This document shows positions 9,786-62,119 of a DNA stretch of 64,000 bases, piece after piece. A program made the translations under genes and the position numbers. Each line of letters opens with the position of its first letter. Position 1 is the first letter of the stretch. The notes below the pieces were generated by a model, which worked only from the letters and a program-made list of their open reading frames with translations, searched no databases and was not told the DNA's origin. Source of the DNA: an uncultured Nitrososphaerales archaeon (GTDB lineage: Archaea > Thermoproteota > Nitrososphaeria > Nitrososphaerales > Nitrososphaeraceae); the NCBI GenBank assembly GCA_963709405.1, contig CAVPXM010000030.1, positions 32,001 to 96,000 on the forward strand, written 5' to 3'.

Positions 9786-10014
9786 GATTGTTAATCTGTC
9801 TATATGAAAGCTTATTAATGCTACGTTAATTTTTTTCGGTGGCTAAAGACTTTAAGGAGTTATTATATCAATGATGAGAAGTTTTTATTTTCAGCTATCT
9901 TCCACAGTTTCGTAGTTAAAACCCGATTTGTACTATTGTATATAATATAATCGTACTAGTGACTCGAGTTGCTGACTTTGTGTGAATTCCTGCTGTTCGC
10001 TCTCCTAGAATCAG

Positions 10015-10848
10015 TTAATGTTCATGACTTTGGTTCAACCCCCATTTTTCTCTTACTCTGTCCTCCAACTTAGAAAATACGACTCTGTCAAATATTAACC
10101 CGATAGCAAATATCGTAATCATCGAAGCAATTATTTGGTCCATTAGCTGAAATTCTCGGCCAACTAGAAGTATGTGGCCTAAACCTACGACTGCTCCTAT
10201 AAGTATTTCAGCTCCTATTAATGCGTGCCACGCGAAAGACCAAGCTTGTTTTATACCGATGAGCAAAGAAGGTGTAGCTGCCGGTATCATGAGATATCGG
10301 AAAAGTGAAAATCCCTTTGCCCCCATATTCCTTGCAGCACGAATGTAAATAGGCGGTATATTACGTACTCCACTATAGGTTGACATCATTACGGAAAAGA
10401 CTGAACTCATTATAACAACAAATAATATGCCGAAGTCATTTAAGCCGATTAATAGGATTGCAAATGGTACCCATGCTACACTCGGAAACGATTGCAGCCC
10501 TACTGCAAAGGAACTCATAGTTTTTCCAAAGCCTGAGAATTTTACCATGGCCAATCCAATTCCTATGCCAAAGATTATTGATATGGAAAACCCAATGCTA
10601 AGCCTATACATGGTAACTGCAATGCTGCTTATCAGAGTCATATCTTGAATTAGCTCTTCAAACGAGCCTGAAACCATAGCTGGAGACGGTAATGCCACCC
10701 GTGGCCACACGTTCAGTAAGAATACTATCTGCCATATTCCAAGGAATGTAGCTATAAACAGAGTAACATTAGCTACATTATCCAAATCTATGTTTCTTAA
10801 TGCCCTTCTTTGAGAGGCATTTTTTCCTAGTCCTGTTTCCATATACAT
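10015..10848 (-). CDS. ABC transporter permease, NitT/TauT (SsuC-like) family
   Basis: LPSP, QSFPSVAWVP, EAA-like loop IRAARNMGA, and LIGAE...GLG motifs. Confidence 0.9.
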   Translation of the reverse strand: MYMETGLGKNASQRRALRNIDLDNVANVTLFIATFLGIWQIVFLLNVWPRVALPSPAMVSGSFEELIQDMTLISSIAVTMYRLSIGFSISIIFGIGIGLAMVKFSGFGKTMSSFAVGLQSFPSVAWVPFAILLIGLNDFGILFVVIMSSVFSVMMSTYSGVRNIPPIYIRAARNMGAKGFSLFRYLMIPAATPSLLIGIKQAWSFAWHALIGAEILIGAVVGLGHILLVGREFQLMDQIIASMITIFAIGLIFDRVVFSKLEDRVREKWGLNQSHEH

Positions 10849-11367
10849 CAGGTACCAGAATCAGAGTACATTTTAGATTCAATAAGAAATCTTTTTTTCT
10901 GTATCTTACTAAGTGACAATTGTCTCTTCCTCACTGGATGCAGCACGTATGCCATGCTGCAGACCTACTCATACTGTTTGTGTTATTCATGCGCATCACT
11001 TCTGTAAAACGCTTAATCTCAGCTATATCCTAGATGAATATTACTGCTTAGGTATGTGCAAAAATGCACAGGTTAACGCAAAATATTCACATATCGTAAT
11101 CATCACCAATTATTCTGCATCTTTTCTCAAATATAGATAAGAAGAATAGATATAACAATGCGTAATAATGGTCAGGCAATATTTTTCCAAGCCTATTATA
11201 GTGTTTCCGATAAACAATCCACAATAAATTCTAAATTTGCTCACGAAAATGCACGTGTATTCTAAAGACCTGCCTGTCGTGTTTTGTATTTAGCCATCCA
11301 TTATTTACCTTATAAGGATTATTCGAGATTGCGTGGATCGTTTCTACGTTAAATTACACTATGCCAT

Positions 11368-11400
11368 ATCCAAGGCGGGTTTCCCGTGTTCCGCCTAGTC
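11368..11400. repeat. Free-standing GC-rich hairpin AGGCGGG-TTTCCCGTGT-TCCGCCT(AGTC), related to CRISPR spacers 2 and 3
   Basis: Reverse complement GACTAGGCGGAACACGGGAAACCCGCCTTGGAT aligns with spacer 3 GACTAGGCGGTGCACGCCAATCCCCGCCTAGAT. Confidence 0.65.
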
Positions 11401-11856
11401 TATATCAACATATCTGTTTGGAATTTGAGTTCAAACCTAGCATAAATCTAATCATTTGCTATTTTATAAAAGACGATTCTGGGAATAATGCAGATAAAAA
11501 GTAATTGTAAATACACTTCGGCTTAGTCTCAGTCCTCATGAGAGAATCAATCATCGTGTTACGCACAAAAACAAGATCAATAAAGATGGATGTCAACTCT
11601 AAATGAAAAACTATAATGACCTAAAATTCTATGATAGAGATTGATCTATGAATAGGCTAAATTACCTATCAGGATCTTTCAATTTGGTTCTGCATTTATA
11701 TGGGTTTGAAGCGCAAGGCGATATTTATGCTATTCCAAGACGATGACCTGTTTGAAAGATGATAATAACAATAAAACAATAATTTGTTATCGGATATTGT
11801 TATTTAGAGAAGTAGCATATGTATTTTTAAGATGGTATTAAGTAAGTAAGTAAAGC

Positions 11857-12063
11857 ATGGTAGACTTAACGAAGCTAAAATACAAAGTCAATTATAATCA
11901 TTATACATATAATTTTAAAACGAAGAGATATGAGAGTAAAGAAGCAAGCTACTCAAGTTATGAGCAGGCTAGAGCAAATCAATGGAAATGCGAAAAATGT
12001 TGCAAACTATTCGCAACTCTCAAGCAACTTAGACTCCATAAACTGGAATATCATTCCTACTAG
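11857..12063 (+). CDS. Small C2H2 zinc-finger protein
   Basis: CEKCCKLFATLKQLRLHKLEYH. Confidence 0.75.
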   Translation: MVDLTKLKYKVNYNHYTYNFKTKRYESKEASYSSYEQARANQWKCEKCCKLFATLKQLRLHKLEYHSY

Positions 12064-12558
12064 TACATTTAGACGATGAACGCGTCAGTTCTGATTAGTG
12101 TACATTTTGATGTATTAGGTAAATGTTAGTTATTGCTTTTACTGATTGAGATTCTGATAAGTGGATCCAAAGATCAGTTGGTGAGGCTAATGCTAGACGA
12201 ACTGTTCGTGACTTGGCATGTTCGGCTCCGTATTGTCTAGTTACGTAGCCGCTTTACCTCCCTCCCATCGTAAGTTTGAATAATCTCTCATCGAGAGTTT
12301 ATTCAATTGAATACTGCCCAGAAATCTTTTATTCGACAGACCATGTATTACGAACCGAATTTATATCATGAGGTTGAGTATCTAAGCGTTAGTTTTTAAT
12401 GTTCTAATACCAACTACTCAATGTTGAGAACAATACAAGTAACGTAAAAAGGATATAAATCTTATCTAATAAAGATATGTAAGACAGAAATTTAAACGAA
12501 GCTAGGTAGTTATGTTAGCATATCATAAATACTTATTTTTTAACTTATAGTTGGCCAC

Positions 12559-12819
12559 TTGAAATATAGGAGCAGAACTGATATAATTGCAATGATTTTG
12601 GAGAGCGCAAATAGAGAAGGTGGGTCAACAAAGACTAAGATAATGTATAAAGCATTTTTGTCCTTCACTCAACTCAAGGAATATCTGATGGTTTTATCAC
12701 AAAACGATTTGCTACAATATGAGGAAATAAATCAGGTCTATAAAACTACAAGCAAAGGAATTCAATATTTAGATCTCTATAATAATATTGACGAACTGAG
12801 CAGTGCCAGCGTAGACTAA
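12559..12819 (+). CDS. Winged helix-turn-helix transcription regulator (ArnR1-like/HTH_45 family), paralog of 7713-7991
   Basis: KYRSRTDIIAMILE...KTKIMYKAFLSFTQLKEYL...YKTTSKG. Confidence 0.88.
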   Translation: MKYRSRTDIIAMILESANREGGSTKTKIMYKAFLSFTQLKEYLMVLSQNDLLQYEEINQVYKTTSKGIQYLDLYNNIDELSSASVD

Positions 12820-13390
12820 TGGCTCTAAGTATCTGATTATCAACTGTTTGAGACTAGTGTGATTCTGCTTTGTTGCATAACTAAGCAAACCTCAACTACT
12901 TGACGATAAGCCGATAACATTGTATTAATTAATATCATATATTTATCTCAAAAATGACTTTCTATACCATAAGAGACGAGGATGAGTCATGCAACAAAGC
13001 AGTGTGATTCTATTAAATTACACGTTAATCACGACGAGTTTGATAAAAAAAGAATCATAGATTGTAAATTTCATAAACATATGCGATTGATCTTTTCTGA
13101 TTTGAACGTGAACGAGAGTTGAATAATTTACATTTCTAAACTTTGATTTACGCCGTGGAAGTCATTTATTTGTTGAAATACAGGGATAATTTCTTTATGG
13201 AGGCGTGTATTAGTTGTCTTAATTCTGGAGTAACCGCTAGTCGGTTGACCATTCGACAAAATTCAATGTTTAGCAAATCATAATCAAAACCTTGATTTGT
13301 TACCATGACAATGCACTATAATACATTTACAATCAAAAAAAGAAATTGGATATTTCTGAATTACACTCGGTTGACAGCGATGTCGTCATT

Positions 13391-31184: not shown

Positions 31185-31661
31185 CTAACCGTCATATAAT
31201 AATATATTGCGACTTACTGGCTCATCATTGCTGGAACTAAGCAATGTTATATCTGGAATCGTCATTAATAATTTAGCGATCTCATCTTCTTTAGCAAGCA
31301 GCAGTATCTTCTTAGATACTGTACTAACTTCATCATTCAACGATCTAATAACACGAAGGCAGCCATTAATTCTATAATCATCATGTCCTTCCAGTTTATC
31401 CATATCTCTTTTGGTAAATGTACTGGTACGATCGACATCGGAGGCATCTATACCCTTCATAAGCGTAATGCTATGTACCTTATTCTTTAGTTTAGTTCTC
31501 ATTCTTACAAGTGCGGCTCTATGCCTAACAATGTCTCGTAGTTCCATTATTCTCTTGTTTGGAACATAGCATTAAGCTATGTATCCTCCTCTCAGTAGAT
31601 CAGCTAGTTTAACCGCATCAAGTTTGTCAGTCTTTATTTTAGCTGAGGCAATACTCTTGTC
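31185..31661 (-). mobile_element. IS110-family transposase remnant
   Basis: KIKTDKLDAVKLADLLRGG, ELRDIVRHRAALVRMRTKLKNKVH and LLMTIP; internal stop, truncated at both ends. Confidence 0.85.
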
Positions 31662-31664
31662 TTA

Positions 31665-31679
31665 GAACCTATCCGAAAA
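31665..31679 (+). mobile_element. Solo IS5-type terminal inverted repeat (GAACCTATCCGAAAA) preceded by TTA
   Basis: 14/15 identical to the IS end at 31973-31987 and similar to the ends of the IS at 25095-25988. Confidence 0.7.
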
Positions 31680-31688
31680 GTAGTGGAG

Positions 31689-31972
31689 GTTGTAATTTGA
31701 CTGATATAGGATTGAAACACTCTTCATCTCAGATTGTAGGTGTGTATGTTATTGCGTTGTAATTTGAGTAATATAGGATTGAAACAACGACTAGGCGGTG
31801 TTCAAGCGTTCCCGCCTAGATGGTTGTAATTTGAGTAATATAGGATTGAAACAACGACTAGGCGGTGCACGCCAATCCCCGCCTAGATGGTTGTAATTTG
31901 AGTAATATAGGATTGAAACTTAATACATGCATACTAGGTATAGGTATGGATAAACAGTTGTAATTTGACTAA
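31689..31972 (+). CRISPR. Orphan CRISPR mini-array: 4 full 30-bp repeats, 1 truncated repeat and 4 spacers of 37 nt
   Basis: Repeat GTTGTAATTTGAGTAATATAGGATTGAAAC at 31689 (variant), 31756, 31823 and 31890, partial at 31957-31972; typical ATTGAAAC 3' end; no cas genes in the window. Confidence 0.95.
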
Positions 31973-32610
31973 GAACGTATCCGAAAATTCCAACTCTTCT
32001 GTAAGTGATCCAAGCACAAGCAAAATGTAACATCGCAATATGGTTCTCTACCTTTATCTCCCATCTAATTAACAAGCGTCTAAACCGGTTCATCCAAGAA
32101 TCAGTCCTTTCAACGACCCATCGTCTAGCTCTATATCTAGGTAATTTTGCTCTTTTTATGTTGCTTCTTTCTTCTGCTCTTAATCGGATGTGAATTGTAT
32201 AACCTTACTCTTCTTCAAGTAATTCGTATACTTCAGGAGAGTTATAACCCTTGTCAAGGCACATGTGCTGCTTTGATCTGATTGTTGGTTCAGGTCTATA
32301 GATTACTACTATACTCTGAAGTGGTGCTTTACTCAGTTTCATATCATGTCTGTTAGCACCATCTACGGATACACCAATAGGAACTCCTTTACCATCTACC
32401 AAGATACTACGGTTTGTACCTGATTTACTTCTGTCTGTGTGAGGGATTTGGTCCTGTACTTTTTTCCCTCAAGAGGTGTTTTTGTAATAACACCGCCATC
32501 CATAGCCTGCCATTTCCAATCTATTCTATTATTTTAATCATATACCGACAATCCATCGATCCACATGCGTTTGAATACACCTTCTTTCCTCCACTCTTGG
32601 AATCTATCTT
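31973..32610 (-). mobile_element. IS5-family remnant inserted in the fifth CRISPR repeat; its other end is missing
   Basis: TIR GAACGTATCCGAAAA after TAA; broken frames RFQEWRKEGVF, WKWQAMDG, VDGKGVPIG..ANRHD, MCLDKGY and RRWVVERTDSWMNRFRRL. Confidence 0.88.
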
Positions 32611-32723
32611 CATATCGACTAATATGTTTCTATCTATGAATATCATCAATTTGTAGATTCGACAGACAGATATGTTTATGAGTTCATCCCAAGTCCTGAA
32701 TGCTTTACTATCCATAGAATCAG

Positions 32724-61702: not shown

Positions 61703-62119
61703 ATGAATAAACAAGTTTCAAATCAGCGAAACGACTATTTCAGAGATGCGTGTAAAGCTGATGAAGTACCTGAGGGTAGTATGAAACATGTAGAAGTTGA
61801 CGGAAGGGAAATCTTGATTGCCAAGGTTGACGGGAAATTCTACGCTATCGCTGATAGGTGTGGGCATATGAACGCTTTACTTTCAATGGGCTACTTGGAC
61901 GCTGCTAAAAACAAGGTCACATGCGGATTTCATGGGGCTCAGTTTGATATAACAACTGGGCAAAAATTGAAGGAACCCAGATTGACGCCTCCGGAAGGGA
62001 TGGATCCACTCCCAGAGAAATTGTCTGAGTTTGTGTACAAAATGATGAACCCTATCAGAACCTACGATCAAGAGAGGTATGAGGTAAAAGTTGAGGACAA
62101 TATGGTCAAGGTAAAGTGA
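61703..62119 (+). CDS. Rieske [2Fe-2S] ferredoxin
   Basis: CGH...CGFHGAQFDITTG Rieske ligands. Confidence 0.9.
   Translation: MNKQVSNQRNDYFRDACKADEVPEGSMKHVEVDGREILIAKVDGKFYAIADRCGHMNALLSMGYLDAAKNKVTCGFHGAQFDITTGQKLKEPRLTPPEGMDPLPEKLSEFVYKMMNPIRTYDQERYEVKVEDNMVKVK

Follow-up and report, generated by a model that had tools for sequence, protein, structure and literature searches.

An intergenic hairpin in a soil ammonia-oxidising archaeon is probably a decayed fragment of an IS5-associated, CRISPR-like mini-array

Why would a hairpin standing by itself in intergenic DNA look like the spacers of a CRISPR-like array on the same contig? The question is raised by positions 11368-11400 of the whole 64,000-nt stretch of DNA analysed here (hereafter, the window), where the initial annotation saw a chromosomal relative of the array's hairpin spacers. 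It assigned the hairpin to a dispersed element family that exists outside the array, and suggested that the spacers might sample or target this resident family, or partly self-target it for regulation. The window carries genes for AmoC, a CopC/CopD fusion and archaeal wHTH proteins, and its source organism is a soil ammonia-oxidising archaeon with a 4.83-Mb, 37% GC assembly (G000) that consists of 100 contigs and is 91% complete. The metagenomes that hold the stretch around the site come from soil and peat, in 14 studies.

Read on the minus strand, 11368-11400 consists of GACTAGGCGG, AACACGGGAAAC, CCGCCTTG and GAT, letter for letter as first reported. The parts of the site are:

11368..11400, minus strand: putative hairpin relic, from the sequence read, the alignment and the sister-strain differences
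11391-11400, minus strand: 5' arm of the site, GACTAGGCGG
11379-11390, minus strand: loop of the site, 12 nt
11371-11378, minus strand: 3' arm of the site, CCGCCTTG

Seven of the eight stem pairs are formed. Local alignment of the site with the repeat-spacer 3-repeat unit of the window's array gives 23 matches over 29 aligned columns and one gap, which bears out the earlier estimate of about 23 of 30, and the alignment extends into TGTAATTT, which belongs to the downstream repeat. The alignment scores 28, whereas 2000 random genome windows average 14.8 (sd 4.1), and the single random window that reaches this score is a true array. The site is also, as described, a GC-rich spot in AT-rich intergenic DNA: GC is 0.64 at 11371-11398 (64%) versus 0.36 across 10001-12000 (36%), and no ORF of at least 50 aa lies over it. 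The statement that no CRISPR repeats surround it holds for intact repeats but not for a degenerate, terminal-repeat-like stretch at 11330-11360, to which we return below. An inverted-repeat search around the site recovered only the hairpin itself, and on neither strand is the stem followed by the T-run of an intrinsic terminator.

The sequence was reproduced in two independent soil or peat assemblies. A DNA contig from run X1 covers 10000-12819 with 7 differences, none of them within the hairpin and the closest at 11366, and a contig from X10 covers 11246-11449 with 1 difference. Because these contigs come from different studies and carry the same sequence, the site is no assembly artefact.

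The array with which the site was compared belongs to an IS5-associated mini-array family with 15 dispersed loci. Its features in the window are:

31665..31688, plus strand: IS5-type inverted repeat that follows a TTA and adjoins the mini-array's first repeat
31689..31987, plus strand: mini-array of four 30-nt repeats and an IS-truncated terminal repeat, with modules A, H, H and C
31786-31822 and 31853-31889: hairpin modules of the window mini-array
31968..32613, minus strand: truncated and degenerate element of the IS5 family, comprising the 3' portion of the transposase gene and starting in the terminal repeat after TAA

Allowing up to 6 substitutions, the 30-nt repeat is present in 37 copies at 15 loci on 10 contigs, with 1 to 4 repeats at each. 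The 37 inter-repeat segments are not unique spacers; they are a few modules common to the loci, with 6 copies of A, 12 of H (at 11 loci), 5 of C, 5 of E, 3 of F, 2 of G and 2 of D, plus a third copy of D in the locus listing at C63:192k. As read from that listing, module order is constant: A, then H, then D, G or F, then E or C. All 12 well-preserved copies of the hairpin lie between CRISPR-like repeats, at 11 of the 15 mini-array loci. Searched against the rest of the genome at E<=0.05, the modules gave no match, and hence no protospacer was found. The mini-arrays would be expected to yield crRNA-like RNAs of about 67 nt with an 8-nt 5' handle, ATTGAAAC.

The ends of these loci tie them to an insertion sequence. 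Eleven of the 15 begin directly after a 24-nt IS5 inverted repeat preceded by TAA or TTA (ten clear cases and one diverged, at C63:86.5k), and eight end in the first 13 nt of the repeat followed by TAA and an IS5 end, with the IS itself traced in 5. In the window, the inverted repeat at 31665..31688 matches the far end of the array-associated IS subfamily, and the element at 31968..32613 has more than 15 copies in the genome. At full length the IS measures about 950 bp, with terminal inverted repeats of about 20 nt and a TNA duplication; its ends with TTA/TAA flanks are present in 8 copies, and other copies match Pfam DUF4096 (1.4e-24) and DDE_Tnp_1 (1.3e-8). A DDE transposase with the IS4/5 N-terminal domain, inverted repeats and the TNA duplication place this partner in the IS5 family. 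Copies of a young IS subfamily are 97-99.7% identical and lack arrays; copies of an older one are mostly broken and lie beside arrays. Two other insertion-related observations were made in the window. At 31185-31663 there is a broken remnant of an IS110-type transposase (a weak Pfam match, E=0.0024), which is cut by the IS5 end preceding the mini-array and has copies on C54, C5 and C44. In run X1, a contig departs from the window right after the TAA at 12817-12819 and continues in letters that resemble the IS5 inverted repeat; an IS5 insertion at 12817-12863 thus appears to be polymorphic in the population.

A type I-B effector locus is present at C46:1-7570, in the order cas6 fragment (split or truncated), 5-repeat array, cas8b, cas7, a 187-aa ORF without a Pfam match, and cas3. 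Its repeat has about 22 of 30 positions in common with the mini-array repeat, including all but one of the last 14. No match to Cas1 or RAMP was found in the 91%-complete assembly.

Beyond this genome the family is scarce. With at most 3 mismatches, the repeat occurs 36 times in G000; of 120 other family genomes, 1 has it, a single time, and a reversed-pattern control gave 0 matches. A search for the module in 30 relatives at E<=0.01 (150 candidates scored per genome) gave one marginal match, in G012, and no other. The one other genome with the repeat has a single repeat-spacer-repeat unit with a different spacer (G006:C190:2928-3025). No IS5 end was seen in the 701 nt around that unit, and we discarded the idea that its spacer is a hairpin, as 68 of 500 shuffled sequences fold as well.

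Does the site descend from the hairpin module of these arrays, or does it merely look like it? A covariance-model scan, as proposed with the initial annotation, did not tell the site apart from background. We built a covariance model (CM) from the 12 in-array hairpin modules. On the 64-kb window it scores the site at 10.9 bits (E=0.6), and an unrelated match at 61730 scores higher. Genome-wide, 17 matches have E<=10, namely the 12 modules, four reverse-strand reads and a locus at C63:86046 (E=0.007). The site is missing from this list, for which 150 of 1271 candidates were scored. An nhmmer profile of the repeat-module-repeat unit, also run genome-wide, ranks the site 31 of 102 (E=0.44). Likewise, the site matches 15 of the 20 invariant module columns, as do 35 genome positions, and 4 unrelated-looking positions reach 16 of 20. 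The site is therefore not significant against models made from the 12 in-array copies, and such general models, over-fitted to 12 closely related copies, cannot establish its membership. Further copies of the family do exist, so the outcome that had been named as fatal to the earlier reading, no further copies together with no significance, is not what was found.

A chance origin, in which an unrelated GC-rich hairpin happens to share a 10-mer with the module, is favoured by these CM and nhmmer E-values near 0.5. The 10-mer itself occurs 4 times outside arrays, versus roughly 2 expected from base composition, and similar hairpins are common in other organisms. In addition, a 14-nt exact match to the 5' half of the module falls in a putative dehydrogenase-type coding sequence, which means that short exact matches do arise by chance here. 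More targeted comparisons separate the site from background better than the general models do. Outside arrays, 3 hairpins have the form TAGGCGG...CCGCCT. For 210 stems of the same composition the average is 0.43, or about 0.3 if the real stem is left out, and a count of at least 3 is seen for 8 of them. The fit to the module's own features is ambiguous. Of the 14 positions in the module's 5' block AAYGACTAGGCGGT, 11 are kept at the site; GACTAGGCGG is complete, and the invariant T that follows the arm has been lost. The module has an 8-bp stem, CTAGGCGG/CCGCCTAG, and a loop of 13-14 nt, compared with 7 of 8 pairs and a 12-nt loop at the site, and damage similar to that of the site's stem and loop is seen in an in-array module, at C55:151425. 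The loop letters CACG/AA at the site belong to the loop lineage of the in-array module at C63:258380-258416, a lineage that includes the window's spacer 3.

Two results settle the question, and the first is a second version of the locus. Contigs from X19 and X20, two oligo-dT RNA libraries of one study that were assembled to contigs, can be aligned to 11069-11990; over 930 nt there are 53 substitutions and 14 gaps, so that the contigs come from the same locus in a strain about 93% identical; the sister-strain evidence is from contigs of this one study. Five of the differences listed fall within the hairpin (11375, 11384, 11388, 11389 and 11390), and 104 further sister-strain differences lie beyond those listed. 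With the changes applied, the loop is identical at 11 of 12 positions to that of the in-array module C63:258380-258416, the longest exact run shared with this module grows from 10 nt in G000 to 20 nt in the sister strain, and the identities increase from 25/37 to 29/37. The T after the arm and the next 9 loop bases match a module in the sister strain. Thus, common descent of the site and the in-array module is seen in an orthologous, less-diverged copy with a 20-nt exact run. The decay of the G000 site comprises 4 loop changes and that of the sister strain a change in the 3' arm, CCGCC to CCGTC; one stem mismatch is common to both. The site predates the split of the two strains and is decaying differently in each.

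A second line of evidence lies next to the hairpin, beginning 10 nt downstream of it:

11330..11360, minus strand: degenerate terminal unit, consisting of the first 13 nt of the repeat and an IS5 inverted-repeat-like part, from a PWM and local alignment

The PWM score of this remnant is 8.16 bits, which is reached or exceeded at 159 of 9,656,972 genome positions, true copies included (P=6.6e-4 per 40-start window). Scored separately, the repeat-start part has 8.2 bits (genome fraction 2.4e-4) and the inverted-repeat part, in fixed register, -0.05 bits (fraction 2.7e-3, the top 0.27%), whereas the continuation of a standard repeat is a far poorer fit at -24.5 bits. A 24-nt local alignment also supports the remnant. 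Downstream of the hairpin, therefore, the flank holds a degenerate terminal repeat and an IS5 end, and the order at the site is hairpin module, IS-truncated terminal repeat, IS5 end. Upstream there is nothing comparable: no convincing repeat or other module was found within 10850-11900, and blastn-short of that interval against all array loci gave only matches of 13 nt or less.

The site is homologous to the in-array hairpin module and has a terminal-repeat/IS5-end remnant beside it. Because the 20-nt exact run of the sister strain and the adjacent terminal-unit remnant are both present, the resemblance to the array hairpin reflects homology and not chance, and we regard the chance reading as highly improbable.

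Two other places in the genome gave weak matches outside arrays. One, C63:86031-86078, keeps the upstream repeat end, with a mini-array on the opposite strand about 450 nt away; the other, C60:88583-88631, has both repeat stubs and a shortened loop. The nhmmer scores form a graded series, from the 12 intact units (E<=3.5e-26) through C63:86046 (0.0018) and C60:88583 (0.27) to the site (0.44). We read C63:86046 and, at E=0.27 only, C60:88583 as candidate decayed hairpin units. Among the 3 same-stem hairpins outside arrays, C63:86046 has a repeat remnant and C25:16413 lacks the upstream GAC.

These remnants bear on the direction of descent. An independent hairpin element, that is, a resident mobile or recombination-site family that was sampled or targeted by CRISPR, could explain why the hairpin spacers share their arms in one register and differ in their loops, as expected from sampling paralogous copies, and two or three hairpins do occur outside arrays. 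Yet the better-scoring outside copies carry repeat remnants, and the site itself has the terminal-repeat/IS5 remnant. Because the well-preserved hairpin copies sit between repeats, the better-scoring outside copies keep repeat remnants, and the site has a degenerate terminal repeat and an IS5 end, descent runs from array to site and not from site to array. The wider searches also speak against an independent element. The arm pattern matched at least 110 stretches of genome contigs and at least 120 of metagenome contigs. In 190 loci taken from the matches listed, 26 matches stood out by low GC or by fragments of the motif, and beside no locus were there module flanks or anything array-like, although scans of this kind do not speak to absence. 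Among viral contigs there were 0 matches to the strict two-arm pattern, and 47 contigs matched a loose one, none with module flanks. Cas1, as noted, was not found in the 91%-complete assembly. Finally, the suggested check for HUH/TnpA, tyrosine-recombinase or IS110 genes beside the hairpin was negative: none is present within about 2.5 kb of the site, and the partner element is of the IS5 type. With only 3 same-stem hairpins outside arrays and no cognate enzyme nearby, the site does not behave like a free-standing REP/MITE-like, HUH-linked or IS110-linked element. We therefore consider an independent element very unlikely. The earlier claim of a dispersed family outside the array survives insofar as the hairpins are dispersed and homologous, but not as to independence, since all 12 good copies lie between repeats; the claim that the spacers sample or target a resident family is not supported, with no protospacers found and repeat remnants kept by the outside copies.

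As a side result of these searches, ten IMG/VR contigs of 33-37% GC were found to share one conserved hairpin that has the same 10-nt arm and an unrelated loop and flanks (L288, L289, L295, L303, L304, L306, L312, L313, L319 and L324). This hairpin is also present in two metagenome contigs, one with a TARA-prefixed name, and is unrelated to the module.

If the site came from an array, has it since acquired a local role? The site lies upstream of an ABC-permease gene, about 520 nt from the gene start at 10848, in the following segment:

11110..11506, no strand assigned: intergenic segment with the site, about 395 nt, with no alignable counterpart in G004 and G005; boundaries approximate

The segment is single-copy in G000. 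Two same-genus genomes (G004 and G005) have about 68-80 nt in its place and keep both flanks, and the alignment shows a replacement of about 395 nt versus about 68 nt, without clean ends or a duplication; a bounded insertion at the site was rejected on this alignment. The ORFs nearby encode the ABC permease, wHTH proteins, AmoC and a NUDIX protein, or have no match, and blastn of 10800-12100 against the genome returned the region itself and one 32-nt match (11032-11063), nothing else. This 32-nt match is the core of a separate feature, a conserved block of about 60-80 nt at 11018-11096, upstream of the ABC-permease gene, that is about 80% identical in five same-genus genomes and has no match in Rfam. 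The core has a second locus in G000 (C26) and is also present in G004, G005 and G006; the contigs of all four mapped runs diverge at 11032 and 11063. In G006, the contig with the repeat unit mentioned above also carries a second copy of the 11032-11094 block, at a distance of about 2.1 kb from that unit.

An array-derived hairpin that is now kept locally, as a protein-binding palindrome or an RNA or DNA structure upstream of the ABC-permease gene, would fit this position, and also the pattern of conservation: 17 of the 18 arm positions are kept, whereas the flanking repeat remnants are about 65-70% identical. The preservation of the arms is a biased measure, though, because the site was noticed through its arms, and one base of the 3' arm is substituted in the sister strain, with the stem mismatch shared by both strains and no compensatory changes. 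Nor do the 121 nt around the site fold better than shuffled sequences (z = -0.2 and -1.6), and the segment is absent from the same-genus genomes in which the flanking genes are kept. Contigs from the RNA libraries do cover the region, but the X19 contigs fall in every one of the 30 bins of the 3 kb, at similar depth, and such even coverage is no evidence for a specific transcript at the site. Taken together, local exaptation of the hairpin is unlikely.

Could the site instead be a partial self-target for regulation, as was also proposed? CreA and CreR are crRNA-like regulators, and a crRNA from the hairpin module might in their manner guide the type I-B complex to the site without cleavage. 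The effector set on C46 (cas6 fragment, cas8b, cas7 and cas3), with its related repeat, and a 10-nt contiguous match near the 5' end of the spacer are consistent with this idea. Type I seeds are not known to tolerate either mismatches or indels, however, and here spacer positions 2-3 are mismatched and a 1-nt indel is needed, so that an uninterrupted seed and a gap-free match are both lacking. The cas locus lies on a different contig, so the site is at no cas promoter; the mini-array and cas-linked repeats differ at about 8 of 30 positions, and common descent already accounts for the match. We thus give regulatory self-targeting very little credence.

The in-array copies have one further property that the site touches on. 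In pairwise comparison, the loops of the 12 in-array modules differ from one another by a mean of 0.43. The corresponding values are 0.03-0.07 for the arms with their fixed flanks, 0.07-0.09 for the repeats next to them, and 0.01-0.10 for modules A, C, D, E and F. The loops form about five lineages. At the fossil locus, 4 of 12 loop positions, three of them adjacent, differ between two strains whose overall divergence is about 7%. We considered the loops as guides and rejected this, as the loop strings have no meaningful genome matches: outside arrays there is no exact match for 10 of the 11 distinct strings, and the eleventh has 2, which is at chance level. Either the loop lineages are old paralogues in which all else has been homogenised, or the loops mutate faster. 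A bolder proposal is that the hairpin module is an actively diversified cassette, with constant arms and a hypervariable 12-14-nt loop, carried on IS5-mobilised crRNA-like arrays in a genome with type I-B effector genes and no detectable Cas1; we hold this to be improbable. If true, the loop would set specificity or serve as a decoy, or it would be acted on by a loop-directed mutational process; the relic would then record loop diversification outside an array.

How do the arrays and the site compare with known systems? Integron attC sites and REP/BIME elements have constant arms, a variable centre and mosaic modular arrays. The hairpin modules are like them in their constant arms, their variable centre and the mosaic, modular make-up of their arrays, but there is no integrase or REP-associated transposase near the site, it is the sequence of the arms and not the structure that is constant, and the copies are confined to CRISPR-like repeat frames. 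A closer parallel is with stand-alone arrays on mobile elements. Four thaumarchaeal iMGE are described as carrying CRISPR arrays, two of them without cas genes (PMC6563490), and archaeal viruses, for example the Saccharolobus portogloboviruses, as carrying cas-less mini-arrays (PMC11656645, PMC6858448). The mini-arrays of G000 are likewise short and cas-less, with repeats related to those of the host type I-B system; unlike those arrays, they are carried by an IS5-family element of about 950 bp, are multi-copy within one chromosome, and have as "spacers" a small set of modules that recurs from locus to locus and for which no target was detected. The site differs again in being only a decayed fragment. 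An IS-borne, multi-copy mini-array with fixed modules is therefore a variant of the cas-less mobile arrays already known. We found no literature description of such IS-borne mini-arrays, supplementary files aside, and the terms "insertion sequence" and "IS element" have 0 occurrences in the review PMC11656645.

The same review describes Racr as a single-repeat-unit RNA anti-CRISPR (PMC11656645). Like Racr, CreA and CreR, the modules are repeat-flanked, non-immune "spacers" away from adaptation genes; unlike the case of CreA and CreR, neither a cas promoter nor a toxin gene was found to hold a partial match, and any function of this kind would belong to the intact arrays and not to the relic. 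With respect to the carrier, IS5 expansion has been described in a soil ammonia-oxidising archaeon, with 43 copies reported for Ca. Nitrosocosmicus oleophilus (PMC6563490). The G000 elements resemble decayed IS5 or MITE-like insertions in their TNA duplication, inverted repeats of about 20 nt, many broken copies and leftover ends, and are unlike them in that what is left over includes CRISPR-derived passenger DNA, namely the hairpin module and a repeat stub.

In our judgement, the site is quite probably a non-functional fossil, the last recognisable piece of a CRISPR-like mini-array unit once inserted here. We propose that IS5 ends captured part of a native type I-B array between them, and that the captured array was then amplified by transposition and trimmed by recombination from repeat to repeat. 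A fragment would have arrived at this locus by IS5-mediated transposition of a composite of inverted repeat, array and IS; repeat-by-repeat recombination may have removed the other units, and the remainder of the insertion would have been deleted and mutated away, leaving a relic presumably without present function.

The site itself is thus of low interest, and its worth is as evidence about the mini-array family. As a relic, it shows that mini-arrays were inserted and decayed at chromosomal sites, and that the hairpin module predates the split of two soil strains. On this reading the "spacers" are the inherited cargo of an IS5 derivative, not immune memories or guides against a resident element, and the self-targeting story is removed. 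What it leaves for the intact arrays is a question: why, in a module whose arms are kept, the loop should change 4 to 30 times faster than all its surroundings.
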